64,000 bases of DNA. Origin: Candidatus Bathyarchaeota archaeon (GTDB lineage Archaea; Thermoproteota; Bathyarchaeia; Bathyarchaeales; Bathycorpusculaceae). Positions 44,636 to 63,552 of this stretch are shown here, one piece after another. The notes beneath the pieces are model-generated. The model did not search any database. It saw only the letters and a list, made by a program, of their open reading frames with translations, and had not been told where the DNA came from. The DNA lies in assembly GCA_963815095.1 (NCBI GenBank), contig CAWFFH010000003.1, forward strand, positions 736,001 through 800,000, given 5' to 3'. Position numbers and translations under genes: made by a program. Position 1 is the first letter of the stretch; each line of letters begins with the position of its first letter.

Positions 44636-44650
44636 ACGGAGGAAAAAACA

Positions 44651-45193
44651 ATGTCCTGTGAACCATGGCAATGTGCAGAAATAGCTTCAACTAAAAAAGC
44701 AAACCCAATACAAAAACCCGAGATAGCAGTAGCAATGATCAAAAAAGCCCAACGCCCCCTTCTTATTGTGGGAAGCAACGCCACAGAAAGGTACATGGAA
44801 GGCAAACAACTAATAGAATACCTAATCGACTTCGCAAACGCCTCCAAAGTACCAGTCGTCGCAACCGCCCACATGGTTGGCGAATTCATAAAACGAGGAT
44901 ACCAACCAGCGGCATTCATGAACGCGATGGAAATCGGACAGCGTGTAGTTGACCCAGAATGGATGGGACTCGACGGCAAAGGACACCCAGACCTAGTCAT
45001 TTTGGTTGGGTTACCCTACTATGTTGAATCACTGATGCTCTCAGGTATGAAGCATTTTGCACCCAACCAAAAAACCATGACTATCGACAACCTCTTCCAC
45101 GTCCACGCAAGCTGGTCTTTCCCAAACGCACCCCTCGAAGAGTGGGCTGCAAATCTCAAAGTAATGACCTCAAAATTTAATGGAGGAAATTAA
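44651..45193 (+). CDS. cdhB: CODH/ACS epsilon subunit
   Basis: IKKAQRPLLIVG, WMGLDGKG, LSGMKHF and ASWSFPN. Confidence 0.92.
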   Translation: MSCEPWQCAEIASTKKANPIQKPEIAVAMIKKAQRPLLIVGSNATERYMEGKQLIEYLIDFANASKVPVVATAHMVGEFIKRGYQPAAFMNAMEIGQRVVDPEWMGLDGKGHPDLVILVGLPYYVESLMLSGMKHFAPNQKTMTIDNLFHVHASWSFPNAPLEEWAANLKVMTSKFNGGN

Positions 45194-45196
45194 AAA

Positions 45197-46618: not shown

Positions 46619-46624
46619 TTCTTC

Positions 46625-47851
46625 TTGACTCACCACGACACAGACAAAAAAAAGGACAATGAAGGACTACTGCTGAGCGACGAATTAATGGAAGCCCTTG
46701 CAAAATTCCAGACAATCGAACTGGAAGACTTCCAGATGGACGTCAAAGACCTCGAAATCCTCTTCGAAGCAGGCGCAGCAGGGCAATTAATGCCCAAATT
46801 AAAGTTGCCAGCAGCAATAGCTGGTGGAAAACCACTCAGTATGCTCCAAGTGCCTTTCCTGCCACCGATCGAAAAATACCCAAACAAAATCTCAACAGTC
46901 AAACTAGGCGCAACAAAAAGCGAAGGCGGCACACGCGGCAGATCTCTTACAATCGGCGGAGAAGTTTCTCCTGCCTTCTACACTTTTGAAAACCCGATGC
47001 CCCACAAACCAGTTATTACTCTAGACGTTTTCGACATGGAAGTCCCCCTGTCAAAGGCAGTGAAGATGCACGTTAAAGACGTCGTCGGCGACCCCGCAGC
47101 TTGGGCAAAACTTGCAGTCGAAAAATTTGGCGCAGACATGGTCACTATGCACTTAATCAGCGTTGACCCACTTCTCAAAGATGCAACTCCCAAAGAAGCA
47201 TGCAAAACTATCGAAAAAGTTCTGCAAGCCGTAGACGTACCACTCGTCATCGGCGGATGTGGGGACCCAGTTAAAGACACAGCAGTATTCGAAGAAGTTT
47301 GTGCTCAATTCCCAGGCGAACGCTTCCTAATAAGCTCCGTTACGCGGGATATGGACGTAGAAAAATGCGCAAAATTCATCAAAAAAGCTGGTCACGCAAT
47401 CCTCTCATTCACACCAATGGATCTTAACTTGGCTCGCGAACTCAACAGACGCCTCTACGACTATGTAGCCAGAGAAGACATTGTTATGGACTTAACTACC
47501 GCGGCCTTAGGCTACGGTTTAGATTATGCATTCACAAACATGGAACGCGCACGAATGAGCGGCTTAATGGGCGACGCAGAACTTGCACACCCAATGTCCT
47601 CGGGAACAACTAACGCTTGGGCAGCAAGAGAAGCATGGCTCAAAATGGGCGCTGAATGGGAACCACGCGAACTCAGAGGGCCACTTTGGGAAGTAACAAC
47701 AGCCATAACACTGTTGCTCGCAGGCGTAGACCTATTCATGATGATGCATCCAGCAGCAGTAAAAACACTAAAAGACGTTACAAACTACCTATCAAGCGCC
47801 AAAAAAGCAGACCCATCAAAATACGCAAACTGGGTCACAGTAAAAGCTTAA
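46625..47851 (+). CDS. cdhD: CODH/ACS delta subunit (CFeSP small)
   Basis: GGTR..IGGE, DLTTAALGYGLDY, NAWAAREAW and MMMHP. Confidence 0.95.
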   Translation: MTHHDTDKKKDNEGLLLSDELMEALAKFQTIELEDFQMDVKDLEILFEAGAAGQLMPKLKLPAAIAGGKPLSMLQVPFLPPIEKYPNKISTVKLGATKSEGGTRGRSLTIGGEVSPAFYTFENPMPHKPVITLDVFDMEVPLSKAVKMHVKDVVGDPAAWAKLAVEKFGADMVTMHLISVDPLLKDATPKEACKTIEKVLQAVDVPLVIGGCGDPVKDTAVFEEVCAQFPGERFLISSVTRDMDVEKCAKFIKKAGHAILSFTPMDLNLARELNRRLYDYVAREDIVMDLTTAALGYGLDYAFTNMERARMSGLMGDAELAHPMSSGTTNAWAAREAWLKMGAEWEPRELRGPLWEVTTAITLLLAGVDLFMMMHPAAVKTLKDVTNYLSSAKKADPSKYANWVTVKA

Positions 47852-47857
47852 GGAGAC

Positions 47858-49291
47858 ATGACTAATATGGCAGAAAAGAAAAAAGGCGGATTAAAAGAAC
47901 TAAGCCCCATAACCATTTACAAGAGCTTGCCAAAAATTAACTGCAAAGAATGCGGCGTCGACAACTGCATGGCATTCGCCACCAAGATTGTCAACCGAGA
48001 AGTTGAACTTGACAGTTGCAAACCACTCCTCAAACCAGAAAATGCAAAATCTTACGCTATACTGAAAGACCTCCTAAAACCAGCAGTTAAAGAAGTCATC
48101 GTTGGCGTCGGAGACAAAGCTAAGAAAATCGGCGGCAAACTAGTCATGTACCGCCACGAATTCACATACAAGAACCCAACAGCCATATCAATCGACGTAA
48201 CCGACGATATGAGCGACAGCGAAATCGTTACACGAGTGCAAAAAACAGATAACTTTACCTTCGAATACATCGGCAACACCCTAAAGCTCGACATGATAGC
48301 TGTTCGGTGCACTTCTGGAGATGCTGACAAATTCAAGGCATGCGTTAAAAAAGTATCAGAAACCACAAAGTTACCAATGATATTATGCACCATGAGCCCT
48401 GCGATAGCTGAAGCAGGTTTAATGGCAGCACCAAAAGCAAGACCACTCCTCTACGCAGCAAATGCAACCAACTGGAAAGACATGGCAGAACTAGCACTAA
48501 TGTACAATTGCCCCATAGTCGCATCCGCACCAAACGACCTAACAACACTTGTTTCACTCGCAAAAACCCTAATGGCTTACGGAGTAACCGACATAGTCTT
48601 AGACCCCGGAACCTTCATAAACGAAGGCTTACCTGACACAATCAACAACTTTACCATGCTCCGCAGAGCAGCAACAAAAGGCGGCGAAGAACTCGCAGGC
48701 TTACCCCTACTCGGCGTACCAATGGTTGCATGGGTAGACAAGGGAGACACAGCAGACGACCTCATAAAATGGCGCGAAGCATATGTCGCATCCATGCTCG
48801 TAGTTCGTTATGCAGATGTACTAATCATGCACGGCAACGACGGATGGGCACTACTACCAACAACCGTACTAAGACAAAACATTTACACTGACCCACGTAA
48901 ACCAGTGGCAGTAGCAGCAGGCTTGAAAGTCTACGGCACACCCGACGAGAACTCACCAGTCCTCTTCACATCAAACTTCGCTTTAACCTACTACACAGTC
49001 GCCTCAGACATCGAGAGCAACAAACTCAACGCCTACCTGATCGTCGTTGACACAGAAGGCTCAGCAATCGACAGTGGAGTTGCAGGACGCAAACTAACCG
49101 CGGAACGAGTCGCAGACGCAATCAAAGCCTCAGGCATAGAAAAGAAAGTCAAACACCGCAAAATCATCAGCCCAGGCAAAGCATCACGAATCAGCGGCGA
49201 AATCGAAGAACTCAGCGGCTGGAAAGTCCAAGTTGGACCACGCGACAGCAGTGAGATACCCAAGTATCTCATAGAGAAATGGCAACCATAA
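47858..49291 (+). CDS. cdhE: CODH/ACS gamma subunit (CFeSP large)
   Basis: LPKINCKECG..CMAFA, RQNIYTDP, SNFALTY and VGPRD. Confidence 0.96.
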   Translation: MTNMAEKKKGGLKELSPITIYKSLPKINCKECGVDNCMAFATKIVNREVELDSCKPLLKPENAKSYAILKDLLKPAVKEVIVGVGDKAKKIGGKLVMYRHEFTYKNPTAISIDVTDDMSDSEIVTRVQKTDNFTFEYIGNTLKLDMIAVRCTSGDADKFKACVKKVSETTKLPMILCTMSPAIAEAGLMAAPKARPLLYAANATNWKDMAELALMYNCPIVASAPNDLTTLVSLAKTLMAYGVTDIVLDPGTFINEGLPDTINNFTMLRRAATKGGEELAGLPLLGVPMVAWVDKGDTADDLIKWREAYVASMLVVRYADVLIMHGNDGWALLPTTVLRQNIYTDPRKPVAVAAGLKVYGTPDENSPVLFTSNFALTYYTVASDIESNKLNAYLIVVDTEGSAIDSGVAGRKLTAERVADAIKASGIEKKVKHRKIISPGKASRISGEIEELSGWKVQVGPRDSSEIPKYLIEKWQP

Positions 49292-49327: not shown

Positions 49328-49381
49328 AGCCTAAAGAAATTCTTTTATAATCCGCCCAATTTCTAGAAATTGGTGATTTTT

Positions 49382-49783
49382 GTGGATCATACAATTGTGC
49401 ATTTTGAAATTCCAGCCAATGACATCGAAAAACTAAAGAAATTTTATATGGATTTGTTTGGTTGGACGATGAATAAGTATCCTGGACCTACTGTCTACTA
49501 CCTTGTGGGAACGGTTCCTGTGGATGAGAAGACGATGATGCCTATTCGACCCGGTGTTAACGGCGGACTATATGAGAAAAAGGATGCTTCGATGCCAGAG
49601 ATGGCTAAGCCGATAAATTACATATCTGTAGAATCGGTTGAGGAATACAGCAAGAAGGTGGAAACGTTAGGCGGCAAAATAGTCCAGCAGAAGATGGAGA
49701 TTTCGGGCATAGGATGGTGGGCACTGGCGCTTGACCCTGATGGTAATGCTTTTGGGATGCTGGAGTACTTGCAAAAACCATAA
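49382..49783 (+). CDS. VOC/glyoxalase family protein
   Basis: VHFEIPA.D..FY.DLFGW, NGGL and DPDGN.FG. Confidence 0.88.
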   Translation: MDHTIVHFEIPANDIEKLKKFYMDLFGWTMNKYPGPTVYYLVGTVPVDEKTMMPIRPGVNGGLYEKKDASMPEMAKPINYISVESVEEYSKKVETLGGKIVQQKMEISGIGWWALALDPDGNAFGMLEYLQKP

Positions 49784-49938: not shown

Positions 49939-51423
49939 ATAGGCTGCGGTATCTTTGGGGCAATAAATTATGATAATCAACTAGTTTTTCCGTATGTTTA
50001 TTGGGGTTTACGTGCACAGAACCATCGGGGACACCAATCACATGGTTTCCTCACATACAGCGACAAACAATTCTTCACTTACAAGAACTTGGATCTAGTT
50101 CCCAAAGTCAAGAGCAATGCTATCCAAGAATGGTTTGGCCGTTTGCCTGGATCTATAGGCATTGGTAACGTAAGGTATACAACCTCAGGCAAATGCGATG
50201 ACGTTTCTATAATTCAGGGTACACAGCCTGTGATAGCTTCTATTGATGGAATAAAAGTTGCACTGTCATTCAATGGTAACATCGTAAATACGTTGCCGCT
50301 GAAAAAAGAAATGACTGAAAACTTCCCAGATTTCCTCTATAACTGTGATTCTGACATAGTTTGTCACAAAATGCTTCAGGGATTAAAACAGGGTAAAGAT
50401 TTGGAATCTGCTGCTCGTACCGTTATGGAGGGCTTGGATGGCGCATTCTCCGTGATAGGTATTACAGGCGAGGGAGATTTTTTTGCCTTCAAAGACCCTC
50501 ATGGAATAAAACCGTTGTGTGCTGGACATGACCCAAATGGAAAAACTTTTGCTTTTTCATCTGAAACTGTCAGTTTAGACATGAATAGTTTTGTGCGGGA
50601 CTTTGAATTAAAACCCGGTGAACTCGTAACCGCTTCACCCGAAGGCTTCAAACGTACCCAAGTTATCAAAAATCCCAGAGAGGCCTTTTGCGCTTTTGAA
50701 TATGCTTATTTTGCAAGGCCCGACTCCACATTTGGCGATGATAAATACGTTTATGAAATGCGAGAGGATTTCGGAAGAAACATTGTGAAAGAATTCCCAG
50801 AAATCGCCAAAGACGGCGACATCATAATGTCGGTTCCTGAAACTGGCGACGACTCCGCAATGGGTGTTCATGAAGCGTCAGGTTTACGTTGGGAACGAGC
50901 TTCAAGACGCCACCGCTATGTTACCGAACGTGCTTTCATTCTGCTAAACACAGAGCGATTCTCGACAATTGATAAGAAGATTAACATTTTAGGCTCCAAA
51001 GTCGCTGGCAAGCGAGTCATTATAACCGAAGATAGCATCGTCCGAGGAGACACGACCAAAGTTATTATCGAGAAACTGCGTAAAGCAGGAGCAAAAAAAG
51101 TATACGTCTTCGTAACTTTCCCCCGCATTATTGGACCCTGCTTCTACGGCATCGACATGTCCACTTATGGGCAACTCGTCGGTTCAAGAAATGACGCCGC
51201 AGGAATCGCTAAAATCATCGGTGCAGACGGCGTATGCTATCAATCCCTCGAAGGGCTCATAGGGGCGACCGGACACACAGAAGACCAACTTTGCTTAGCC
51301 TGCGTCACAGGCAAGTACCCCACGCCGTGCGCGCAGAAAATGGCTGACATAATGAAAAAACGTTTCCAAGAAGGCTACGAAGAAAAAAGCAGAATCTACG
51401 AGTCTGAAGAAGCTCAGCCGTAA
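49939..51423 (+). CDS. purF: Amidophosphoribosyltransferase (4Fe-4S type), apparent ATA start
   Basis: The frame upstream of ORF 50089 reads ATA-GGC-TGC-GGT-ATC-TTT-GGG (CGIFG), then QNHRG, NVRYTT, CAFEYAYFARPDS, EDSIVRGDT, PCFYGID and CLAC. Confidence 0.92.
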   Translation: MGCGIFGAINYDNQLVFPYVYWGLRAQNHRGHQSHGFLTYSDKQFFTYKNLDLVPKVKSNAIQEWFGRLPGSIGIGNVRYTTSGKCDDVSIIQGTQPVIASIDGIKVALSFNGNIVNTLPLKKEMTENFPDFLYNCDSDIVCHKMLQGLKQGKDLESAARTVMEGLDGAFSVIGITGEGDFFAFKDPHGIKPLCAGHDPNGKTFAFSSETVSLDMNSFVRDFELKPGELVTASPEGFKRTQVIKNPREAFCAFEYAYFARPDSTFGDDKYVYEMREDFGRNIVKEFPEIAKDGDIIMSVPETGDDSAMGVHEASGLRWERASRRHRYVTERAFILLNTERFSTIDKKINILGSKVAGKRVIITEDSIVRGDTTKVIIEKLRKAGAKKVYVFVTFPRIIGPCFYGIDMSTYGQLVGSRNDAAGIAKIIGADGVCYQSLEGLIGATGHTEDQLCLACVTGKYPTPCAQKMADIMKKRFQEGYEEKSRIYESEEAQP

Positions 51424-51461
51424 TCGCTATTAAGCGTTCCGTCCACTTTCTATCAGGTACG

Positions 51462-52883
51462 GTGTCTCGGATGGAAAAAATAGGTGTCCTAGTCGTTTCT
51501 TATGGAGCACGAGAAGTCGCCATAGCCGATACTCTTCTAAGGAGCAAAAAATACCAAGTAAAACTCTACGTCGCCGACAAACAATTTAACCCCTTCAACG
51601 CAGAAAAAGCCACAAAACACAAAGTCATCCCAAACCTCGACATAGAAGAAATCTGCAAGTTCGCCGAAGCAAACAAAGAAAAACTTGACTTTGTCATGGT
51701 TGGCTCCGAAAAACCTATAATTGAAGGCATCCGTGACTTAATCGAGAAAAAAACAGGTATACCTGTGATTTGTCCCACCAAAGAATATGCTATAGAGGAA
51801 AGCAAAGTCGCTCAAAGGGTACTTTTTGAGGAGATTGCACCCGAAGCGAATCCACGATTCAAAGTTTTCCACCCAGCCGATTACAAGGGCAAAGATGTTC
51901 AGAAGTCTGTATATCAATGGTTAGATGAATTGAATAACCAAGCCGTCGTCAAACCCGACAAGCCTGCTTTGGGTAAAGGTGTTGGTGTCTGGGGTGACCA
52001 CTTCGCGAATCGTGAGCAGCTTTTTGAGCATTTCATGTCCAATTTCAAGTACGGTTCAGTCATTATCGAAGAAAAAATCGATGGCGAAGAATCCAGCTGC
52101 ATGGGCTTCTGTGATGGCAAACACTTCATTCCCCTGCCCGACACGCGTGACTACAAACGTGCCTTTGACAATGACGTAGGTCCAAACACTGGTGGCATGG
52201 GCTCCTACAAAGATGTTGCCGATTGGTTGCCATTCTTAACTTCAGCTGAACGTGAAAAGGAGCGCGCGTTAGCAAACAAGGTTTTCAAAGGCTGGAAAAC
52301 CAAAATAAGCGATGATACCGCCCTTCGAGGTGTTCCATTGTATCTTGCCTTTATGCATACTGGAAAAGGCATCAAAATCCTCGAAATCAACAGTCGCCCT
52401 GGCGATCCCGAAATTATGAACCTTCTGCCAATCATCAAAGACGACTTCGTTGATGTCTGCCTAAAAATGATTAGTGGTAACTTGACGGGTGTTGCACTTG
52501 AAAAGTCTGCGACGGTTTTAACTTACAAAGTTCCAGCAGACTACGGCGGTTATGCAGAAACCTTTCCTGCCAAAATCGACAAATCTGCAATTACCTCGCC
52601 CGTTGACCTAACTAAAGCCCAAGCATTAACCAAGAAGTACGGCGACAAAATCCGCATCTACCCCGGCTCCATGGAGCTGCGAGAAGGCAAAAACTACGCC
52701 CTCAAATCCCGAGCAATTGGTATCCTTGGCATTGGCAGCAGCATCGAGGAAGCGCGCAAAATTAGTCAAGAAGGCGCCAAAGTCATTACTGGCGGTGCAC
52801 TCTGGAACCGCACCGACGTAGCCTCAAAACAGCATATAGCCAAAAGCGTTGAGCACATGGATAGGTTGAGGCACAAGGCTTGA
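51462..52883 (+). CDS. purD: Phosphoribosylamine--glycine ligase
   Basis: GARE.AI, IEESK, VVKP...GKGV, DYKRAFD.D.GPNTGGMGS and EINSRPGDPE. Confidence 0.95.
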   Translation: MSRMEKIGVLVVSYGAREVAIADTLLRSKKYQVKLYVADKQFNPFNAEKATKHKVIPNLDIEEICKFAEANKEKLDFVMVGSEKPIIEGIRDLIEKKTGIPVICPTKEYAIEESKVAQRVLFEEIAPEANPRFKVFHPADYKGKDVQKSVYQWLDELNNQAVVKPDKPALGKGVGVWGDHFANREQLFEHFMSNFKYGSVIIEEKIDGEESSCMGFCDGKHFIPLPDTRDYKRAFDNDVGPNTGGMGSYKDVADWLPFLTSAEREKERALANKVFKGWKTKISDDTALRGVPLYLAFMHTGKGIKILEINSRPGDPEIMNLLPIIKDDFVDVCLKMISGNLTGVALEKSATVLTYKVPADYGGYAETFPAKIDKSAITSPVDLTKAQALTKKYGDKIRIYPGSMELREGKNYALKSRAIGILGIGSSIEEARKISQEGAKVITGGALWNRTDVASKQHIAKSVEHMDRLRHKA

Positions 52884-53962
52884 CGCGCGTTTTTATATCT
52901 GACTGTGAAGGACCCATATCCAAAAACGACAACGCTTTCGAACTGGCAGAGAACTTTATTCCAAACGGTGACAAATTTTTCACAAACATAAGCTTGTACG
53001 ATGATGTTCTAGCAGATAGCTTTCACAAACCTGGTTACAATGCGGGTAGCACACTCAAGTTGATTTTACCCTTCTTCAAAGCTTATGGCATAACCGATGG
53101 TCAAATGGAAGATTTCTCCGCTAGAAACATTGTTTTAATCGCTAACACCAAAACCACCCTCCACCACATACAATCACTAACCGACGCCTTCATAGTCAGT
53201 ACCAGCTATGAACACTACATCAAAGCCCTCTGCAAAGCAGTCAATTTCCCATACAAAAACACATACTGCACAAAAGTTGCTCTCGACAAATCTCCAATCA
53301 CTCCTCAAGAAAAAGAGCGCCTAAGAAAGATAGCCCAAGAAATCGCGCAAATGCCGCCAATTGAAATTCCGTCAAACGCAAAAAACCTCATGGATTTTTC
53401 GATCAGCGACCAAACCCTTATCCAGCGCTTGGACGAGATTTTCTGGAGTCTAATTCCTAAAACGTTTGTCGGCAAATTTCTCACAGAAATAGTAACAGTT
53501 GGTGGGGAACAAAAAGCCGAAGCCATACGTGATGCCGCAAAACGTTCAGGTGTAGCGCTGGAGGATGTTCTGTATGTAGGTGACAGCATCACCGACGTAG
53601 AAGCTTTCAAACTCGTTCGCGATAACGGGGGTTTAACGGTATCTTTCAACGGAAACCGTTATGCAGTGAAGAATGCTGAGGTAGCTATACAGTCGGAAAG
53701 TAACCTTGTCACGGCTGTGGTAGCTGACTTATTCATCAAGTTAGGCAAAAAACAAACTCTCAACGCTCTCGGGTCATGGAACTTCGAAGCCCTCAATAAA
53801 AGCAAAGTTGATGAGGCTTTACTCCAACAACTCTTCGTCATTTCCCCTGACTGTTTGCCCAAGGTTCAAATAGTTACAGCAGAAAATATGGAATCACTCA
53901 TAAAAGAGAGCAGCGCGTTTAGGAAGAAGGTTCGGGGAGTAGCTATCGGGAGACTTGGATAA
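52880..53962 (+). CDS. HAD-superfamily phosphatase (EhaR/AF1437-like)
   Basis: Motif I DCEGP, II IVSTS, III K(AEA), IV YVGDSITD; start overlaps the purD stop (TTGA). Confidence 0.85.
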   Translation: MTRVFISDCEGPISKNDNAFELAENFIPNGDKFFTNISLYDDVLADSFHKPGYNAGSTLKLILPFFKAYGITDGQMEDFSARNIVLIANTKTTLHHIQSLTDAFIVSTSYEHYIKALCKAVNFPYKNTYCTKVALDKSPITPQEKERLRKIAQEIAQMPPIEIPSNAKNLMDFSISDQTLIQRLDEIFWSLIPKTFVGKFLTEIVTVGGEQKAEAIRDAAKRSGVALEDVLYVGDSITDVEAFKLVRDNGGLTVSFNGNRYAVKNAEVAIQSESNLVTAVVADLFIKLGKKQTLNALGSWNFEALNKSKVDEALLQQLFVISPDCLPKVQIVTAENMESLIKESSAFRKKVRGVAIGRLG

Positions 53963-54871
53963 ATGGGTAAAGCGCAAATTGAAGACACTTACGCTGAAGT
54001 GTTTACTGGAATTTATTGTCGGGTAATCGTTACTGCAGACGATGAGCAAATCCTGCGTAAGGCAGCTGAGGACTCCACCGCAACACCGTCCGTTGTAATT
54101 GGCAGAACCGAGGGCGGCGTAGAAAAATACCTAACTCCAAACGAAACCCCCGACAAACGTGTAGGTGCCATATTACAGTTCTGGGGCGAAATCAACCCCA
54201 AAAAAACATTTGCCGAATCGCTAAAAAAATTCGAAACTGAACTTTCTTACCGCATTCGTCAAGATATTCTTGTCAAACCCTTTACAGCAGTCTTCGATGC
54301 AATGCCACGAGGTGAGGGCAAGTTGGATATGATGGAGAGCGTGGGTCACTGCGGCGATGGATATGAATGGGTCGAAAAGCGATATGGCAGAGAAGTCATC
54401 GTTGTTCCTCTGATGGTGCCGGACTTCATTATTGAACGTTATCTTGGTTACGCAAAGGGCGTTATGGGCGGCAACTTCTGGGTAATGTGCACTTCAAAGC
54501 AAGCACTCGTGGAATCAGGCGCCAAAGCGCTCAAGGCAATTCACAAAGTTTACGGAGTCGTAACCACCTTTGACATTTGCTCAGCCGGCAGCAAACCAGA
54601 AACCCATTTCCCAAAGATTGGGCCAACCACCAATCACCTGTACTGTCCATCGCTTAAATCGCGCTTAGGCAAGGAATCCAAGGTTCCCCAAGGCGTGGGA
54701 TACATAGCCGAAATCGTCTATGACGGCATTTCCTTAGACGCCATCAAAGAAGCCACCAAAGCAGGAATCAAAGCTGTATTAGACGTCGATGGCGTCACCC
54801 GGATTTCCGCAGGCAACTACGGCGGCAAAATAGGAGAACACAAAATCCAATTAAAGGAGTTATTTCCATGA
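53963..54871 (+). CDS. ftr: Formylmethanofuran--H4MPT formyltransferase homolog (divergent Ftr-2/EhaS-like)
   Basis: IEDTYAE, ETPDKR.G, GDGYE, GVMGGNF, SAGSK, TTNH.YCP and ISAGNYGG. Confidence 0.88.
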
Positions 54872-55782
54872 CAAAATTTGATGTTTTAGGTTTCGGAGCA
54901 CTCAACGTTGACATGCTCTTCAAAGTAGAAAAATTTGCAACCGCTGAAAAAGAAAGCTTCATCACAGATTACACGGAAGCCTGCGGCGGCTCAGCAGCAA
55001 ACACGATTGTAGGGCTATCTAGGCTTGGCTGCAAAGTTGGGTTCATAGGAAAAATTGCAGGCGACCGAGAAGGCAAACTGCAACTCGAATGCTTCAAAGC
55101 CGAAGGCGTGGACACTAGCGGAATTATTGAGATGAAAAATGGCAGAAGCGGTTCAGTGATGGGTTTCGTGGACAGAACGGGCGCAAGAACCCTCTACATT
55201 AACTCAGGCGTCAACGACTTAATCGAGCCAAGAGAAATCAAATACGAATACATTTCTCAAACCAAGCTCATCCATCTGTCATCTTTTGTCGGTGAAAAAT
55301 CGTTCCGTGCACAAAAAAAACTGTTAAGCTCCCTACCTGAAGGCGTCGAAATCAGCTTCGATCCGGGTTCAGTGTATGCTCAGAAGGGTTTCGGAGTCAT
55401 AGAACCCATAATAAAGAACTCTCACGTCATAATGCCCAACGCAGCTGAACTTGAACTGTTAACAGGTGAAGAAGATTTCCGTAAGGGCGCCGATTTCATG
55501 ATTGGGATGGGTGTTAAGATTGTGGCGGTGAAGCTTGGCAACAAAGGCTGCTATGTTACCGATGGCCAAGAACATCTCAACGTGGAACCATTCAAAGTTA
55601 AAGCGCTCGATACCACAGGTGCAGGAGATGCTTTCAACGCGGGTTTTCTCTACGGTTTAATACATGAAAAAAGCCTCTATGAATGCGGTCAGCTGGGCAA
55701 TTTTGTTGGCTCCCGAAATGTGTTGGCGATGGGTGCACGCTCAGGATTGCCCTATGCTAAAGACTTAGCATTTCTTCGATAG
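54868..55782 (+). CDS. PfkB-family carbohydrate/nucleoside kinase
   Basis: GALNVD, GGSAAN, FDPG, PNAAE and [12 protein letters not shown]; ATGA overlap with ftr. Confidence 0.92.
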
Positions 55783-56583
55783 TTTGTCGATAATGCTTTG
55801 GAAAATTAGTTTGCCATCCCCATACTGTAGCATCTGTTGCTGACGTGTCCATTCGGGTTGCTGCCACCAGTACATTGCTCTCTCTGGGTGAGGCATTAAA
55901 CCGAGGATGTTGCCTTCTTTGTTACTGATTCCTGCAATATCGTAGAAGGAGCCATTGGGGTTGGTTGGGTATTTGCCGTCGGCGACTTCGCCGTCTTTGG
56001 TGCAATAGCGGAAAACCAGCATGTCCTCATCAATTAGTTTCTTTAGCAATGCTTGCTCTTGATCTTTGGGAAACAGCAATCGTCCTTCTCCATGGGCGAT
56101 GGGTAAATTGATAACTTTCCCAGTAGGGATTTTGGTTGTGAATGCGCATTTGCCTTTGTTTTCCTGTTTCAAATATGTCCATTGGCATTTGAAGCCCGCA
56201 GGCTCATTGGTTGTCAATGTGGCTTCGGGGTAGGCGCTCATGCCTTTGAAGCCGGGAAGCAACCCGTACTCAACAAGAATTTGGAAGCCGTTGCATATGC
56301 CCAAGATTGGTCTACCTTCATCGATGAAAGTTTCCATTTCTTTAGATAGGTTCGCGGAGAGATGTCTTGCAAAAATGACACCTGAACGAACGTAGTCGCC
56401 AAACGAGAAGCCGCCTGGAAAAACCAGCACAGAATAATCCAACAAATTGCGGCGTTTAATTAACTCATTAACATGGACTGATTCTGATTGAACACCCAAC
56501 TCTTGGAAGGCACGCTGAGTTTCTGCATCGCAGTTAGTGCCGCCGACTCGAATTACGCAGACTTTGATTTCTTCTTGGTTCAT
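55765..56583 (-). CDS. purQ: FGAM synthase glutaminase subunit
   Basis: GTNCD, PGGFSFGDY, GICNGFQIL, IAHGEG and MPHPER. Confidence 0.96.
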   Translation of the reverse strand: MNQEEIKVCVIRVGGTNCDAETQRAFQELGVQSESVHVNELIKRRNLLDYSVLVFPGGFSFGDYVRSGVIFARHLSANLSKEMETFIDEGRPILGICNGFQILVEYGLLPGFKGMSAYPEATLTTNEPAGFKCQWTYLKQENKGKCAFTTKIPTGKVINLPIAHGEGRLLFPKDQEQALLKKLIDEDMLVFRYCTKDGEVADGKYPTNPNGSFYDIAGISNKEGNILGLMPHPERAMYWWQQPEWTRQQQMLQYGDGKLIFQSIIDKLSKKC

Positions 56584-58967
56584 TGAGATTCAACCTCTGG
56601 ACTTAGGGTTTTTTTCCAACTACGCCTTAGCGTTTCGAGTGAAGCATCAACAGTAACTTTGCCTTTTAAATCATGGACAAGTAGCTTCTGCTCTTTAGTT
56701 ACCTTGCCAATCAAAGTGCAGTTTTTGCCCTTCATTAATTCCTCAAAGTTCTCTTTATCCGCTTCTGCAACTTCTATTAGGAAACGACTGTTTGATTCAG
56801 AGAACAAAACGAAATCATTTCGGGTTAACTCCTTCCCTGAAACCCCTCGCAAATCTATCTCTAAACCGAGGCCGCCTGCAAACGCCATCTCCGCCGTCGC
56901 CACCGCTAAGCCACCTTCCGAGAGATCATGACATGACTTGACTAAACCCTCATCGATAGCTTTTGTCACGATTTTGAAGGTGCGTTTGGCTTTTGCTCCC
57001 CTTACTTTGGGTACGCTTGCACCGAGGAAGCCTTTAAGTTTGTAGTATTCGGAGCCGCCGAGTTCGTTGAAGGTTTCGCCGATGATGTAGAGGAGGTTGC
57101 CTGCTGCTTTGAGGTCCATAGATGTGGTAGATTGGATGTTTGGAATTACCCCTATTGCGGTGATTAGAAGCGTGGGAGTTACTGTTCCAAGCGGCGATTC
57201 GTTGTAGAGGCTGTCTTTGCCCGAAATGAATGGTGCCTTAAACGCAACTGCGAAATCGTAACATGCCTCACACGCTCGGACAAGTGAGCCCAATCTTTCG
57301 GTTTTTTCTGGGTTGCCCCACGTGAAATTGTCCAAAAGCGAAATTCTTCTTCCGCCAACTGCGATGTTATTGCGTATGGCTTCATCGATTGCTGAAGCCG
57401 CCATCCAGTAAGCATCAATCTTGCCGAAGTTGGGGTTCATGCCACAAGAAATCGTTAAGCACTTTAGCGAGTCGTCGAGGGGTTTTAGCACGGCAGCATC
57501 ATTTGGTCCCGCATACTGACCTTGAAGAGGTTTGAGAGTAGTGTTGCCTTTTACCTCGTGGTCGTAGGTGCGTATGACGCTTTCTTTGCTGGCAATGTTT
57601 GGTGCAGCGAGCAGATGTAGCAGGGTTTCGGTTAGATTTGTTGGCTCTGGAAAGTCTGGTTCGGTGAAGGTTGTTTTTTCGACGGTGGCAACTTTGGTGC
57701 TAGTGCATGGGTTGAATAGGAAAGTCATGTCTATGTCGCTGACAGTTTCTCCGCTGTAAGTAAGTATTAGGCGTCTTTCAGGTGTTAGAGCTCCAATTGC
57801 TGTTGCTATAACGTCTTCCTTCTCAAAAACAGCCATCACCTGCTCCAAATTTTCCGGAGGAACAGTGATTAACATGCGTTCTTGGGATTCGGAGAGATAA
57901 ATTTCCCATGGCGCCAAACCTTGATACTTCAAAGGCACCTTCGACAAGTCCGCGGTGACTCCGCAGTTAAAACGTTCTGCAGTTTCGCCGACGGCTGACG
58001 ATAAGCCTCCGCCGCCAATATCAGTAACGGCTGAGGCAAGTTGGAGATCACGAATCTCAATTATTGCTCGTTTAACTTTTTCTTCCTCAATAGGGTCTGC
58101 GATTTGGACAGCAGGCCGCGAGATTTCCTCCGATTTCTCGGTGAGTTCGGCCGAGGCGAAGGTTACCCCGTGGATGCCGTCGCGTCCAGTTTTTCCGCCT
58201 GCCAAAACTACGATGTCGCCGACTTTGGCGTTTTTGGCGTATCTGTTTAGGGGTAAGAGTCCTATGCATCCGCAATATACGGTGACGTTGCCCGTGTAGG
58301 ACTCGTCGAAATATATTGCGCCGTTGACCGTTGGGATGCCCATGTTGTTGCCGTAGGTGCTTATGCCCGCGGTCACCCCCATGTACACGTATTTAGGGTG
58401 CTTAACGCCCACTGGAAGCTTTTTGTAATCGTAATCTAAAGGACCAAAACCCAAAACATCAGTGCATGCAATTGGATCAGCCCATACGCCCAAAATATCA
58501 CGAATAACGCCGCCAACGCCCGTTGCTGCGCCTCCAAATGGCTCCACCGCCGATGGGTGATTGTGGGTTTCCACTTTTGCCGCTATGCCATAGCCCTTGT
58601 CAAACTTGACTATGCCCGCGTTGTCTTCAAACACGCTTACAGTCCAGGGCGCCTTAATTTGTTTGGTGGCTCTAGCAATGTAGGTTTTGAAAAGGCTGTT
58701 GATTTCTTTGCCGTCAAGTTGGATTTTTCCCTTAAAGGTCTTATGGCAACAGTGTTCACTCCATGTTTGGGCGATAGTTTGGAGTTCAACATCGGTGGGG
58801 CTGCGTTTTTCGGTTTTAAAATAAGTCTGAATTTCCCTGAGTTCCTGAGCGCTGAATCCCAACGCGAGTTCGCTGTTGACTTCGGCGAGTTGTTCATCTG
58901 TGGCATTTGCTGTAACCGCTTCAAAAACTAGGCTATTTTTGCGTTGGCTGTAAAGGTTAGCGTTCAT
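56580..58967 (-). CDS. purL: FGAM synthase synthetase subunit
   Basis: WSEHCCHK, KVETHNHPS, GRDGIHG, SESQER, SGKDSLYN and HDLSEGGL. Confidence 0.97.
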   Translation of the reverse strand: MNANLYSQRKNSLVFEAVTANATDEQLAEVNSELALGFSAQELREIQTYFKTEKRSPTDVELQTIAQTWSEHCCHKTFKGKIQLDGKEINSLFKTYIARATKQIKAPWTVSVFEDNAGIVKFDKGYGIAAKVETHNHPSAVEPFGGAATGVGGVIRDILGVWADPIACTDVLGFGPLDYDYKKLPVGVKHPKYVYMGVTAGISTYGNNMGIPTVNGAIYFDESYTGNVTVYCGCIGLLPLNRYAKNAKVGDIVVLAGGKTGRDGIHGVTFASAELTEKSEEISRPAVQIADPIEEEKVKRAIIEIRDLQLASAVTDIGGGGLSSAVGETAERFNCGVTADLSKVPLKYQGLAPWEIYLSESQERMLITVPPENLEQVMAVFEKEDVIATAIGALTPERRLILTYSGETVSDIDMTFLFNPCTSTKVATVEKTTFTEPDFPEPTNLTETLLHLLAAPNIASKESVIRTYDHEVKGNTTLKPLQGQYAGPNDAAVLKPLDDSLKCLTISCGMNPNFGKIDAYWMAASAIDEAIRNNIAVGGRRISLLDNFTWGNPEKTERLGSLVRACEACYDFAVAFKAPFISGKDSLYNESPLGTVTPTLLITAIGVIPNIQSTTSMDLKAAGNLLYIIGETFNELGGSEYYKLKGFLGASVPKVRGAKAKRTFKIVTKAIDEGLVKSCHDLSEGGLAVATAEMAFAGGLGLEIDLRGVSGKELTRNDFVLFSESNSRFLIEVAEADKENFEELMKGKNCTLIGKVTKEQKLLVHDLKGKVTVDASLETLRRSWKKTLSPEVESQ

Positions 58968-59215
58968 TTGACTTCAGCGACGCTTATGGTGTAGTTGTCT
59001 TTGGTCGGGTTTGCCAATAGGCGTTTGCTCATTTCTTCAGCCTTCGCCTTCGCCTCAGTGAACGTGTCAGCGTCGAGGTGTACGGTGTAGACTTTGCTGA
59101 CATCCACCGCTTGGACATTGTAGCCGAGTTCTATAAGTAAACGTGCAGTAGTTTCGCCTTCCGGGTTGCTGTGTCCGGGTTTGAGGCTGACCTCGATTTT
59201 TGCAGCGTATTTCAT
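58964..59215 (-). CDS. purS: FGAM synthase subunit PurS
   Basis: LKPG..NPEG and LLANP; coupled to purL. Confidence 0.93.
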   Translation of the reverse strand: MKYAAKIEVSLKPGHSNPEGETTARLLIELGYNVQAVDVSKVYTVHLDADTFTEAKAKAEEMSKRLLANPTKDNYTISVAEVK

Positions 59216-59271
59216 AAGCCTCTAAATTAAGCATCAGGATTTAAACGCTTTCGTCAAGAAAAAAGCAATAT

Positions 59272-60355
59272 TTATGTTAAAATCATATGTTTATTCTGAT
59301 AATCGATTTCAACGACTCTTTCTTTTGCTGTAACTTTGCCTATTCGCTCTGGATTGACGCTATTCTGCTCAAGTGCATCCATGGCTTTGTCAATGTCGGC
59401 TTTATCTACGATTATCCCAAAGCCCCACCCCATGTTGAAAGTTCTAAACATTTCCTCATCCGTTATGGTTAAGCCTAGTTCTGCTGCGGTTTTTTGGATT
59501 AAGCCAAAGACTGGTTGGGGTTTGAAATTGTTGAAGTCGAATCCTATTCCCGTTGAGTAGTTGGCTAAGTTGTTGAATTTTAGGTAGGCGTCGCCTGTTA
59601 TGTGCACGGCTGCCTTGACTTTAACTTCACTTGCCAACTTGAGTAGCGCTTTGACATAGATTTTTGTCGGTTCGAGAACTTCTAATGCATACTTCCCTAT
59701 CCAAGCCGTCGGGGATGTCGGTCGGATTGTATTTTCCTCCCCATTGTTTGAAGAGAACCTTTCTTACCAAAGTGATGCCGTTGCTGTGGACGCCGCTGCT
59801 GGTTAATCCGATGATGGGGTCGCCGGGTTTGATTCCTTCTCCCGTGATGATGTTTGGTTTGTCAACTTTACCTATTGCTGAAACAACAATGTCGAAGCCT
59901 GAGTTGGGGGTGAGGCCTTTGATGATTTCTGCGACGTCGCCTGTTTCGCCGTTTACAATTGGGCATTCGGATTGGTTGGCGCCGTCGATTATGCCTTTGA
60001 GCCATGCGTTTACAAGTTTAGGTTCACTGGCGGTTGCATGAATGTTGTCTGCGAGGGCGAGGGGTTTAGCTCCTGAGCGGATAACATCATTAACCACCAT
60101 AGCCACAGCATCAACGCCTATAGTGTCATATTTACCCGCGAGTTCAGCAACCAACACTTTAGTTCCGACGCCTTCAATTTCTAAATCAAGAAAAACGTTG
60201 TCGCCGACGGAGAATATGTTGCTATACGGCAGATGCATAATGCCGCCAAAACCGATGTGCCTGTACGTTTCTTTGAGTGAGGTCAGCGCTTTTTTGGATT
60301 CATGGCGTTGCTGCCGATTGACGCCTGCGTCAGTATAAGTGTAGTTTTTGGGCAC
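59272..60355 (-). CDS. purM: AIR synthetase (apparent +1 frameshift at about 59689)
   Basis: Y.DAGV, EGVGTK, NGETG and SSGVHSNG; LEPTKIY..HITG..RTFNMG.G resumes once one base of GTA-T-GCA is removed. Confidence 0.92.
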
Positions 60356-60558: not shown

Positions 60559-61401
60559 TTGATTAGCGTGCAAGTGCCAAAATATCACATCTTTGTTGAA
60601 TACAGTGAGTTAGGTAAATCAGGCGTCCGCTTTAACGTTCCCCAAGAGGAACTCGTCCGAACCTTTGCCACGCCCTTCACCCTCGGTCAACCCTTCTGGT
60701 TTATGGGCAAACTTCTTAACCCCCAAAAAGTCGTAAAAGCCATCATCTTCTGGTCCTACGAAACAGCCGACAAACTGATCATGCCCAACCACGAAAATCT
60801 TTTAGCCGCCAAAGACAAAAAATATCTCATAGAAAGCATTGTCAAAGGCAAAGTCAAAGGTGCTTACATCTGCACCGAAAAATTTTTGCCCTCAACAGAA
60901 AAAACGATGGCTCTTGCTCAATCAGCAACGTCTGTTTCGGATGAACGGCGCAGGATTTTCGTAATTTGTGGTACTGATAATGAGATGAAAAAGGTCATTA
61001 CTGAAGCTTTGACCAAACTTCATCTTGTGCCAGTGGTTATGTGTGAAGAACAAAGTCAGGGCAGAAAAATTGTTGAACGATTCGCAGAATACGCCGACGT
61101 TGGTTTTGCCGTAGTTTTATTGTCGCCTGATGATTTTGTTTATGTTAAGGAGGAATCACCTGCAAAACGCAAGCTTAGACCCAGACAGGATGTGGTTTTT
61201 GAACTTGGTTTTTTGTTAGGCAGGTTAGGCGAGGGCAAGGTACTTGTTTTTTTCAGGGAATGTGTAAACTTTGAGGGACCTACCGATTTTGAAGGATTAA
61301 ACGTCACTGCATTCGATGACCGGGATAGCTGGAAGCTTGCCCTCATTCGTGAACTCACTAACTGTGGATATTGTGTCGATGCTGACAGGATTCTAAAATA
61401 A
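60559..61401 (+). CDS. TIR-like nucleotide-binding domain protein (CAP12/Pycsar-effector-type TIR) with unknown N-terminal domain
   Basis: RIFVICG.D, GRKIVERF, VGFAVVLLSPDD, RPRQDVVFELG..GRLG and PTD..G. Confidence 0.82.
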   Translation: MISVQVPKYHIFVEYSELGKSGVRFNVPQEELVRTFATPFTLGQPFWFMGKLLNPQKVVKAIIFWSYETADKLIMPNHENLLAAKDKKYLIESIVKGKVKGAYICTEKFLPSTEKTMALAQSATSVSDERRRIFVICGTDNEMKKVITEALTKLHLVPVVMCEEQSQGRKIVERFAEYADVGFAVVLLSPDDFVYVKEESPAKRKLRPRQDVVFELGFLLGRLGEGKVLVFFRECVNFEGPTDFEGLNVTAFDDRDSWKLALIRELTNCGYCVDADRILK

Positions 61402-62166: not shown

Positions 62167-63552
62167 TTGAAAATTACTCTTGTCAATCCACCCTATCCTC
62201 CAAATGCCCATTCACATCCACCTTTCATCCCATTAGGCTTAGCATACCTTGGAGCAGTCGCCGAAAAAGCAGGCCATGACGTTACCGTAATTGACTGCCA
62301 AGGAGAAAGATTAACCTACGACACTTTCCGCCAAAGAATCGCTGGGGTTCCATCAGAAGTTGTAGGCGTAACTTCAACCACCCTACTTTATAATTCAGCT
62401 AAAACGATACTTGAAGTAGCCAAAGAAGTTCACCCAAACGCTGTCTCTATGATTGGCGGAAGTCACGTTAGCTTCTGGGATGAAAACGCCCTAAACGAGT
62501 CCAAAAATATTGATGTTGTAGTCCGTCGAGAAGGCGAACAAACCTTCCTAGAACTTTTGCAGCACATTGAAGCAAAAAAGGATTTTTCAGGAGTTTTAGG
62601 AACAACTTTTCGTGGAAGAGACGGAAAAATCCTTCGCAACGAAGACAGACCCTTTCTGAATGATTTAGATTCACTTCCTTCTCCTGCATACCATTTGCTT
62701 CCGCTTGACTCATATCATCGCATGGGCAAAACGATTTTCCCCATCGTAACCAGTCGAGGATGCGTGCAATGGTGTGACTTCTGCAGTACCGTCCGCATGT
62801 TCGGCAGAGGATATCGTACCCGCAGCAGCAAAAAAGTCGTCGACGACATGGAGATGCTGCATAACAAGTACGGCGAAAGCCAATTCACATTCTACGACGA
62901 CGCATTCACAATCAACCGGCAACACACCTTGGAAATGTGCGCAGACATCAAAGCCCGCAAATTAAATGTGGAGTGGGACTGCGAAACCCGCGTTGACGCC
63001 GTTGACAAGGAACTGCTAGAGAAGATGCATGATGCAGGATGCATAACGGTTTGGTTCGGCGTTGAATCTGGCTCAGAGAAAATGCTTACCAAAATGCATA
63101 AGAAAATAAATCGTGAACAAGTCAAGAACGCTTTCAAAATGGCGCAGAAAGCTGGCATGATGACTATTGCCAGTGCAGTCATCGGCTTCCCAGGAGAAAC
63201 GGAAGAAACCGCATGGGAAACAATCAACTTCATCAACAGTCTAAACCCCGACGACATCGGCTGCTATATCGCCACTCCTTATCCAGGAACACCAATGTAT
63301 GAAGAAGTCGTCAAAAACGGATGGCTCCGCGTCACCGACTTCAACAAATACGACACCGCAACCCCAACATTTGAAACCCCCGAGTTAAGCATGGAACGCC
63401 TCCGCGAAATCAAATATAAAGCCCACCAAAAATTCTACCTGCGCCCAAGCTACGTGTTCAAAATGATGCGCAAAGGCGGCACATATGGCAGATCTGGATT
63501 GAAAACTTCTGCTGCGTACGCATTGCGAGCTATGCACATAAAACTCTCCTAA
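62167..63552 (+). CDS. B12-binding radical SAM protein
   Basis: PLGLAYL, GGSH, EGE, TSRGCVQWCDFC, GVESG and TPYPGT. Confidence 0.92.
   Translation: MKITLVNPPYPPNAHSHPPFIPLGLAYLGAVAEKAGHDVTVIDCQGERLTYDTFRQRIAGVPSEVVGVTSTTLLYNSAKTILEVAKEVHPNAVSMIGGSHVSFWDENALNESKNIDVVVRREGEQTFLELLQHIEAKKDFSGVLGTTFRGRDGKILRNEDRPFLNDLDSLPSPAYHLLPLDSYHRMGKTIFPIVTSRGCVQWCDFCSTVRMFGRGYRTRSSKKVVDDMEMLHNKYGESQFTFYDDAFTINRQHTLEMCADIKARKLNVEWDCETRVDAVDKELLEKMHDAGCITVWFGVESGSEKMLTKMHKKINREQVKNAFKMAQKAGMMTIASAVIGFPGETEETAWETINFINSLNPDDIGCYIATPYPGTPMYEEVVKNGWLRVTDFNKYDTATPTFETPELSMERLREIKYKAHQKFYLRPSYVFKMMRKGGTYGRSGLKTSAAYALRAMHIKLS

Follow-up and report, generated by a model that had tools for sequence, protein, structure and literature searches.

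A HAD-Ftr2-PfkB gene trio in a bathyarchaeal purine cluster as a candidate for the missing formylation of glycinamide ribonucleotide

The 64,000-nucleotide stretch of contig CAWFFH010000003.1 from a Candidatus Bathyarchaeota archaeon analysed here (the window) carries, at positions 49939 to 60355, a cluster of purine biosynthesis (pur) genes in which a gene of the formyltransferase (Ftr) family, referred to as Ftr2, lies between genes for a HAD-superfamily protein and a PfkB-family kinase. Gene calls were based on a listing of open reading frames (ORFs) combined with Pfam and NCBIfam family scans of the window proteins, and revealed the order purF-purD-HAD-Ftr2-PfkB on the plus strand, with purQ, purL, purS and purM on the minus strand converging on it:

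49939..51423, plus strand: purF, amidophosphoribosyltransferase, step 1 (TIGR01134, 287 bits for the 444-aa ORF from 50089)
51462..52883, plus strand: purD, glycinamide ribonucleotide (GAR) synthetase, step 2, divergent subfamily (GARS_N, GARS_A and GARS_C; TIGR00877, 239 bits, under the cut-off of 288)
52880..53962, plus strand: HAD-superfamily protein, AF1437-like, putative phosphatase, 360 aa (PF08282, 30.2 bits, cut-off 20.9)
53963..54871, plus strand: Ftr2, Ftr-family protein of 302 aa, candidate formyltransferase for GAR or GAR riboside (PF01913, PF02741)
54868..55782, plus strand: PfkB-family kinase, ribokinase/nucleoside-kinase-like, 304 aa (PF00294, 173.4 bits)
55765..56583, minus strand: purQ, glutaminase subunit of formylglycinamidine ribonucleotide (FGAM) synthase, step 4 (NF002252, 317.5 bits, over the cut-off of 298)
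56580..58967, minus strand: purL, FGAM synthase, step 4 (TIGR01736, 683.7 bits, over the cut-off of 525.75)
58964..59215, minus strand: purS, FGAM synthase subunit, step 4 (TIGR00302, 66.8 bits, over the cut-off of 39)
59272..60355, minus strand: purM, aminoimidazole ribonucleotide (AIR) synthetase, step 5, frameshifted (ORFs 59272-59637 and 59627-60355; TIGR00878 model positions 2-203 and 235-331)

A first-pass annotation, made from the letters of the window, had described this cluster as purF, purD, purSLQ and purM without step 3, the formylation of GAR to formylglycinamide ribonucleotide (FGAR), and ORFs and family scans gave the same layout. The tight coupling it had noted for the genes after purD was likewise found at all three junctions: purD and the HAD gene overlap in TTGA, the HAD gene and Ftr2 abut as TAA-ATG, and Ftr2 and the kinase gene overlap in ATGA.

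Profile searches of the corresponding genome (2.69 Mb in 9 contigs, 98.45% complete) detected purF, purD, purL, purQ, purS, purM, purE, purC and two purP genes. No match to PurN was obtained in the whole genome, and the best match to PurT reached 52 bits (cut-off 502) within an ORF of 1129 aa, with none in the pur cluster; PurH also gave no match in the genome. For the trio proteins themselves, the NCBIfam scan listed neither PurN (TIGR00639) nor PurT (TIGR01142) at E ≤ 0.001. Among the steps covered by these searches, only step 3 is thus left unfilled. A second Ftr-family gene (Ftr1), which groups with the canonical formylmethanofuran:tetrahydromethanopterin (H4MPT) formyltransferase, was located at C3:986926, and FwdA was found in addition; as FwdA and canonical Ftr1 are both encoded, the two candidate formyl donors, formylmethanofuran and formyl-H4MPT, can be expected to be made. 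Both the absence of purN/purT and the presence of a separate canonical ftr, which the first-pass annotation had singled out for checking, were thus found. A second pur cluster outside the window (C3:1415622-1421539) holds purE, purC and tandem purP paralogues of 368 and 364 aa.

A gap at GAR formylation has been recognised in archaeal purine synthesis since at least the report that Archaeoglobi, Methanobacteriales and M. kandleri possess no purN/purT (Brown 2011, PMC3261824); it was restated in 2022 for the anaerobic methanotrophic (ANME) lineage ANME-1, together with the description of an Ftr2 clade that is uncharacterised and occurs in precisely these groups (Chadwick 2022, PMC9012536), and in 2023 for M. 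kandleri (Holden & Sistu 2023). According to the second of these studies, only Ftr1 versions have been characterised and the M. marburgensis paralogue belongs to the Ftr2 clade (Chadwick 2022, PMC9012536), while an Ftr-like EhaS and a ribokinase-like EhaT were reported to be co-transcribed with eha (Kaster 2011). The background given in the first-pass annotation was thus recovered from the papers as regards the purN/purT gap and the EhaS/EhaT pair; that EhaR, the remaining member of the eha trio it had named, is a HAD protein found no confirmation in Kaster 2011, where the term does not occur. Our literature search found no paper linking Ftr2/EhaS, an AF1437-type HAD protein or EhaT to GAR formylation, and the search on AF1437 returned unrelated matches only. 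To our knowledge, no function has been given to the Ftr2 paralogue or to EhaS/EhaT in the decades since they were first noticed.

The window Ftr2 matches both Ftr lobes over their full length (PF01913, 147.6 bits; PF02741, 179.1 bits) and scores 231.6 bits on the equivalog model TIGR03119, under the cut-off of 292.6 for naming a protein Ftr/FhcD. It shares 35-40% full-length identity with the solved Ftr structures (PDB 1FTR, 1M5H, 1M5S) and 35% with the Ftr1 of its own genome, and Bathyarchaeia Ftr2 proteins among the best 120 matches are 81-90% identical to it. Overall, 589 Ftr-family proteins were found among 1.84 billion representatives. When 57 full-length representatives were placed in a tree, the window Ftr2 fell into a set of 18 rows (SH-aLRT 99) apart from a 39-row clade that contains the genome's own Ftr1, and the addition of 80 genome loci gave an Ftr2 clade of 81 rows with a local support of 100 (FastTree; long branches flagged), with L086 and L088 placed outside the core clade. 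Judged by these sequence comparisons, Ftr2 is a clade distinct from canonical Ftr.

The divergence of motifs from the methanogenic enzyme, which the first-pass annotation had pointed out, proved real against both the solved structures and the Ftr1 representatives: the window protein carries a motif of 12 residues and GHCGDG, versus R(I/L)GQCVLTAPTT and FFADG in the solved Ftr structures and FFGDG in the Ftr1 representatives. The Ftr2 clade has conserved motifs of its own (TxTPSxVxGRxEGG, SYRIRQ, VGxCGDG and IGPTTN) and an insert of about 9 residues. All 27 Ftr2 sequences compared share the catalytic-type, oxyanion-stabilising glutamate E250, which, like 14 further positions, is at least 95% conserved across Ftr2 and 25 Ftr1 representatives; in FhcD the oxyanion-stabilising catalytic residue is Glu252 (Hemmann 2019). 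Ftr2 thus resembles Ftr in both lobes, overall identity and catalytic glutamate, and differs from it in its separate clade, motifs, insert and score under the equivalog cut-off; moreover, unlike Ftr, it always accompanies Ftr1 as a second copy, shows linkage to HAD, PfkB and pur genes and occurs where PurN/PurT are missing.

No Ftr2-related protein of at least 530 aa was found at E ≤ 1e-20, which is weak evidence, and seven long Ftr-family representatives that were scanned contained Fwd/Fhc-type domains or no further Pfam domain, HAD or PfkB being present in none. As fusions of HAD or PfkB with Ftr were not found, support of the Rosetta-stone type is lacking.

The arrangement seen in the window recurs in other genomes. 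Among 52 Bathyarchaeia-clade loci, some of which end at contig ends, 46 have the HAD gene no more than 400 nt upstream of Ftr2, 50 have the PfkB gene no more than 1.2 kb downstream, and in at least 42 purD comes directly before the HAD gene; this purD/HAD/PfkB neighbourhood is kept across 50-90% protein identity. In the Asgard archaeon Ca. Borrarchaeum yapensis, purC and purE on the minus strand are followed by purF-purD-HAD-Ftr2-PfkB-purL-purQ-purM on the plus strand, a run of genes on one strand that follows the order of the pathway, the trio standing where step 3 belongs. The encoded proteins are 28-43% identical to those of the window, PurD is canonical, and start and stop codons of the trio overlap or abut with Ftr2 in the middle, as in Bathyarchaeia. 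The expected recurrence near pur genes was thus observed across Bathyarchaeia and in one Asgard genome.

In genomes without the trio, the same slot can be occupied by other genes. In two Bathyarchaeia genomes of family f7 that have no trio (G109 and G077), purF-purD is directly followed by a PF00551 formyltransferase for which PurN is the best NCBIfam model. Genes of this type (L096, 7799-8635, minus strand; L097, 7922-8821, minus strand) encode proteins of 278 and 299 aa that are 88% identical to each other and reach 76.6 bits on the PurN model, half of its cut-off; they may represent a divergent GAR formyltransferase in their own right. Many other Thermoproteota have a gene of the PurT family immediately behind purD (e.g. 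L098, 5919-7139, minus strand); these PurT-like proteins of about 460 aa score 206-329 bits against the PurT cut-off of 502 and 254 against 339 on NF006766, and in four genomes a single open frame of 460-485 aa holds the PurT match in two pieces. The presence of PurN-like or PurT-like genes in the slot of the trio suggests in-situ displacement.

The distribution of Ftr2 was compared with that of PurN and PurT in two phylum-wide samples, 151 genomes of the window's own phylum (109 with PurD) and 151 Halobacteriota genomes around Ca. Alkanophaga (149 with PurD). A gene was taken as Ftr2 when its hidden Markov model score reached at least 450 bits in Halobacteriota or lay at 465-497 bits in the own phylum, and the split or partial genes of G149, G173 and G263 were added; for PurT, the threshold was 200 bits in the own phylum and E ≤ 1e-50 in Halobacteriota. 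Scores in the own phylum were bimodal, with 465-497 bits for Ftr2 in 13 genomes and at most 302 for Ftr1; G173 (split) and G149 (partial, beside purD) complete a set of 15 Ftr2-bearing genomes, all in the class of the window and 14 with PurD. None of these 14 carries PurN or PurT. Among the 95 PurD-bearing genomes without Ftr2, 77 have PurN over cut-off or PurT of at least 200 bits, and 90 do when PurN-like proteins below cut-off are included; of five genomes left over, G077 has the PurN-like gene, and the other four are incomplete or show partial matches only. The alternation extends to neighbouring genera of the window's class, in which g14 has a PurT-like gene and no Ftr2 and its sister genus g15 has Ftr2.

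A similar picture emerged in Halobacteriota, where Ftr2 reached at least 450 bits in 59 genomes and one further gene was split over two contig ends. PurN was present in two and PurT in none of these 60 genomes, compared to PurN or PurT in 78 of the 85 PurD-bearing genomes without Ftr2. Ftr2 is strongly anti-correlated with PurN/PurT in both samples, and an anti-correlation is what the first-pass annotation had predicted. Genomes with PurT and no PurN never carried Ftr2 (0/14), so that the pattern is not merely one of folate use; PurN and PurT occurred together in four Halobacteriota genomes. Across 40 named genomes carrying an Ftr2 gene, reached via their loci and given without completeness values, PurT was found in none and PurN over cut-off in four. 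The Ftr2-bearing lineages match those of the published gap, i.e. Archaeoglobi, Methanobacteriales, M. kandleri and ANME-1, with Methanobacteriales and Methanopyrus taken from the literature.

PurD itself falls into two score classes. All 14 PurD-matched Ftr2-bearing genomes of the own phylum have a divergent PurD (222-270 bits); the divergent class as a whole (215-270 bits, cut-off 288) comprises Ftr2-bearing Bathyarchaeia and about 30 Halobacteriota, all of the latter with the HAD gene and seven with PurN. Other Ftr2-bearing lineages, e.g. Archaeoglobaceae-like genomes, have a canonical PurD of 425-563 bits. A separate class is formed by five Halobacteriota genomes (G197, G208, G219, G229 and G239) whose Ftr2-like protein of about 329 aa scores 330-379 bits and is always accompanied by PurN, HAD and two to three PfkB-like genes; this subgroup may correspond to the ANME-2a/2b Ftr2 of Chadwick 2022.

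The closest solved relative of the window HAD protein is AF1437 of Archaeoglobus fulgidus (PDB 1Y8A, E 2.8e-32, residues 4-291), a structure labelled 'hypothetical protein' that stems from a lineage without PurN/PurT and with Ftr2. Ten HAD orthologues invariantly keep D8, E10, G11, P12, STSY (107-110), K212 and GDSITD (234-239), and motifs II, III and IV are retained. The kinase keeps the GAGD, NxxE and N-terminal NxD motifs, and DTTGAGDA and PNxxE are conserved in nine orthologues; all 23 NCBIfam models listed for it score under cut-off, the best being ribokinase TIGR02152 (161.4 versus 299.65 bits). It is the only PfkB kinase found in the genome, with no paralogue detected by tblastn at E ≤ 1e-5 over more than 35% of the query. 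In the Halobacteriota sample, the HAD gene is present in 56 of the 60 Ftr2-bearing and in 13 of the 86 other genomes, and a PfkB orthologue of at least 300 bits in 54 of the 60, with five more at 230-300 bits, and in 13 of the 86. All three genes are contiguous in G218, G264, G280 and G312. HAD and PurD are both present in Pyrohabitans, a Hadarchaeote, a Hydrothermarchaeote and an Archaeoglobaceae genome. In G326, 50 residues that match the C-terminus of the HAD profile (C1:2417721-2417870, 46 bits) are encoded directly upstream of Ftr2, and the full HAD gene is located elsewhere; an earlier HAD-Ftr2 arrangement may have left this fragment behind.

The comparisons show which genes are present, the gap at step 3, a clade of its own for Ftr2, and a distribution complementary and a position equivalent to those of PurN/PurT; from these observations we infer the substrate, the donor, the order of steps and the role of the HAD protein as a phosphatase. 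Several lines of evidence together point to Ftr2 as the step-3 enzyme: the gap, the position in the step-3 slot, the replacement in situ by genes resembling PurN or PurT, and a distribution that complements PurN/PurT in several phyla. We consider it probable that Ftr2 is the missing GAR formyltransferase, whichever of two mechanisms applies. Ftr2 would be the catalyst and transfer formyl between the N5 of a pterin and a primary amine, the reaction type of its paralogue Ftr, with the glycinamide nitrogen as acceptor amine and formylmethanofuran or N5-formyl-H4MPT as donor, such that purine C8 would come straight from the Wood-Ljungdahl or methanogenic C1 carriers.

For the mechanism, we tentatively favour, at somewhat less than an even chance, a three-enzyme riboside route in which HAD-Ftr2-PfkB forms a PurN/PurT-independent module from GAR to FGAR. 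The kinase, and usually the HAD protein, would then be part of the same route as Ftr2: the HAD enzyme would take the 5'-phosphate off GAR, Ftr2 would formylate the resulting GAR riboside, and the PfkB kinase would restore the phosphate with ATP to give FGAR, which would make the sequence irreversible.

A number of observations weigh against this reading, and the rival explanations discussed below build on several of them. The evidence for it is comparative throughout, and removal and restoration of the phosphate would cost one ATP and risk a futile cycle. Formyl-H4MPT is not thought to serve as formyl donor (Brown 2011, PMC3261824), and the NCBI subfamily model NF002554 still scores the window Ftr2 as Ftr (332.5 bits, over the cut-off of 297), the Borrarchaeum orthologue being under the cut-off of both this model and TIGR03119. 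In all ten HAD orthologues, motif I reads DCEGP (DxEGP) and not the usual DxDx(T/V), with the nucleophile D8 kept and glutamate replacing the second aspartate. A similar DxE motif is found in enolase-phosphatase E1, which is active.

Genomic context and distribution provide further counter-evidence. Outside Bathyarchaeia and Borrarchaeum, the other 26 loci have no pur cluster around Ftr2 and only one (L068) has a pur gene, purM, nearby. In three ANME-1-like loci (L013, L020 and L048), Ftr2 resides in a conserved block with class V fructose-bisphosphatase (FBPase), phosphofructokinase (PFK), a class II aldolase-like gene and TPR proteins; in L020 and L048 the HAD gene is 3-5 kb upstream of Ftr2 with FBPase, PFK and the aldolase-like gene in between, and in a further locus (L009) the kinase gene adjoins Ftr2 on the opposite strand. 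Eleven genomes combine PurN with an Ftr2 or Ftr2-like gene, namely G264 and G280 with their contiguous trio, the five genomes of the 330-379-bit class, G008 and three Promethearchaeota. The HAD gene was not found in four Ftr2-bearing genomes of the Halobacteriota sample. Conversely, seven PurN-bearing genomes with a single Ftr (about 270 bits) and no Ftr2 keep an adjacent HAD-PfkB pair, from which it follows that the pair has some Ftr2-independent role, and five PurD-bearing genomes with fragmented assemblies have HAD and no Ftr2, PurN or PurT, with a PfkB orthologue in four. In addition, Fisher p-values overstate the case because related genomes are not independent, all 14 own-phylum Ftr2-bearers with PurD belonging to one class. 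The interpretation given in the first-pass annotation is thus partly supported: its computational predictions were all borne out, whereas the co-occurrence with PurN and the seven PurN-bearing genomes with HAD-PfkB and no Ftr2 speak against it.

The most serious alternative, although we regard it as unlikely, is that Ftr2 alone formylates GAR at the nucleotide level and that HAD and PfkB form a separate, co-inherited phosphatase/kinase couple for ribosides or nucleosides, acting in purine salvage, in the control of nucleotide pools or in the supply of ribose phosphate for phosphoribosyl pyrophosphate (PRPP), and merely sharing the pur operons. All support for Ftr2 as step-3 enzyme applies equally to this explanation. 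HAD and PfkB are also the tighter pair, being often adjacent in Halobacteriota genomes, many of them far from Ftr2, and their retention in the seven PurN-bearing genomes and the four Ftr2-bearing genomes without HAD would fit as well. A general role of the kinase is conceivable given that it is the sole PfkB of the genome, and it scores 144 and 128 bits on two ribose-1-phosphate kinase models, under their cut-offs of 330 and 500. Against direct formylation stand the co-occurrence of PfkB with Ftr2 in 59 of 60 genomes versus 13 of 86 others, the overlapping or abutting genes with Ftr2 in their middle in Bathyarchaeia and Borrarchaeum, and the EhaS-EhaT pair, which combines Ftr and kinase with no evident salvage context (Kaster 2011). 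The kinase would, moreover, be superfluous. The near-constant presence of the kinase beside Ftr2, hard to explain if GAR were formylated directly, is what leads us to favour the riboside route.

More doubtful still is the explanation that the trio does other work, such as metabolism or repair of methanofuran- or H4MPT-type cofactors, release of formate for PurP or a sugar-phosphate side path, with another unrecognised enzyme acting as the real GAR formyltransferase and the anti-correlation reflecting ancestry and lifestyle. It could draw on the position of Ftr2 away from pur genes outside two lineages and near gluconeogenic genes in the ANME-1-like loci, on the genomes that hold both trio and PurN, and on a correlation inflated by related genomes. 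The genome's two tandem PurP paralogues would also fit, and a cluster II PurP type without known function has been described (Brown 2011, PMC3261824). On the other hand, Methanobacteriales have a single PurP and are still without PurN/PurT (Brown 2011, PMC3261824), for which reason a PurP paralogue was rejected as the general missing enzyme. A core role in cofactor biosynthesis was rejected too, the trio being absent from most H4MPT/methanofuran users with PurN or PurT and HAD being present in 13 of 86 Halobacteriota without Ftr2. PurT-only genomes would need formate as well, yet none has Ftr2, and it would be hard to explain why the Borrarchaeum operon follows the order of the pathway and why G109 and G077 have a PurN-like gene in that slot. 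Formylation of aminoimidazole carboxamide ribonucleotide (AICAR) was also considered as a target and discarded, PurP being present and PurT-only genomes being without Ftr2.

Finally, it is very improbable that the window gene is a second, differently regulated canonical Ftr isoenzyme for the Wood-Ljungdahl pathway whose place in the pur cluster is incidental. The NF002554 score, the retained Ftr lobes and catalytic glutamate and the carbon monoxide dehydrogenase (CODH)/acetyl-CoA synthase (ACS) genes just upstream would speak for it, whereas the well-supported separate clade with its own motifs, the TIGR03119 score under cut-off, the neighbourhood kept over 50-90% identity, the distribution complementary to PurN/PurT, the judgement that a role of EhaS in methanogenesis is very unlikely (Kaster 2011) and the higher transcription of Ftr1 in ANME (Chadwick 2022, PMC9012536) all argue otherwise.

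Compared with known systems, Ftr2 as a GAR formyltransferase would be related to PurN and PurT by functional analogy only. It shares with the folate-dependent PurN and the formate/ATP-dependent PurT the predicted step and the slot directly after purD, and their distributions are mutually near-exclusive; it differs in having no sequence relationship to either, in a proposed donor that is a methanogenic C1 carrier and not formyl-tetrahydrofolate or formate, and in its two accessory enzymes. EhaS/EhaT, which close the Methanothermobacter eha operon, likewise place Ftr-like and ribokinase-like genes side by side in an organism without PurN/PurT, but are attached to an energy-converting hydrogenase operon and not to pur genes, and their orthology to the window genes rests on the papers cited. 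A precedent for the required direction is provided by the Ftr-family protein FhcD of the bacterial formyltransferase/hydrolase complex, in which formyl-H4MPT is the donor and a furan carrier accepts the formyl group on its primary amine (Hemmann 2019); unlike Ftr2, it belongs to the Ftr1 side of the family diversity, is part of a four-subunit complex and uses methylofuran as acceptor. As to the accessory enzymes, the pair is reminiscent of one from another pathway. Archaeal pentose bisphosphate pathways employ a PfkB ribose-1-phosphate kinase and a HAD phosphatase, i.e. PfkB and HAD-type enzymes that successively convert a ribose phosphate compound. The window kinase is set apart from the ribose-1-phosphate kinases by scores far under their cut-offs, and its pair by the ties to Ftr2 and pur genes.

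In its widest form, which we regard as rather doubtful, the riboside route would constitute a third, unrelated system for FGAR formation in H4MPT/methanofuran archaea without PurN/PurT, composed of an AF1437-type HAD enzyme, an Ftr2 using formylmethanofuran and a dedicated PfkB kinase, in which purine synthesis briefly leaves the nucleotide level. Such a system would be old and widespread, occurring in Bathyarchaeia, Asgard archaea, Archaeoglobi, ANME-1 and relatives, Hadarchaeota and Hydrothermarchaeota and, according to the literature, in Methanobacteriales and Methanopyrus.

The evidence from locus, phyletic pattern and gene position joins two puzzles, the step-3 gap and the function of Ftr2 and EhaS/EhaT, in one testable hypothesis with named genes. 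The gap lineages include established purine prototrophs and model methanogens. If the proposal is true, a universal pathway step would have a third, analogous solution, with purine C8 drawn from the C1 carriers of energy metabolism and not from folate or free formate, which would bear on reconstructions of early C1 and nucleotide metabolism. A widespread annotation (the second "Ftr") would be corrected and holes in the metabolic models built for methanogens, methanotrophs, Bathyarchaeia and Asgard archaea would be filled. EhaS and EhaT would gain a function, and the anaplerotic hydrogenase Eha would be tied to the withdrawal of formylmethanofuran for purine C8.

Two genes of the cluster required closer inspection of their reading frames. 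With ATG, GTG or TTG as start codon, the purF ORF spans 50089-51423 and the first 59 positions of the TIGR01134 model are absent; translation from ATA at 49939 adds the N-terminal IGCGIFG, which includes the catalytic cysteine. The exact start context TGA AAA ATA GGC TGC is common to seven relatives, and further relatives have ATA with other preceding codons (two), ATC (one) or ATG (one). The true purF start is most likely ATA 49939, a non-canonical start that appears to be kept in relatives. For purM, three-frame translation revealed a switch of frame by one base near 59640-59700 in this window only; the gene is intact as one ORF of 349-370 aa in all nine relatives checked, among them L083, which is 98% identical. 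The split most likely stems from a sequencing or assembly error or reflects a strain-specific pseudogene.

Upstream of the pur cluster, a complete-looking CODH/ACS cluster occupies 42286-49291 on the plus strand (Prismane/CO dehydrogenase, CO_dh, CdhC and two CdhD-type genes), followed by a glyoxalase-family gene at 49370-49783. Adjoining the pur cluster on its other side, 60559-61401 on the plus strand encodes a 280-aa protein with a TIR domain of the CAP12/Pycsar-effector type (PF10137, 82.6 bits), possibly a defence gene, and a B12-binding radical SAM protein (PF02310 and PF04055) is encoded at 62167-63552 on the same strand.

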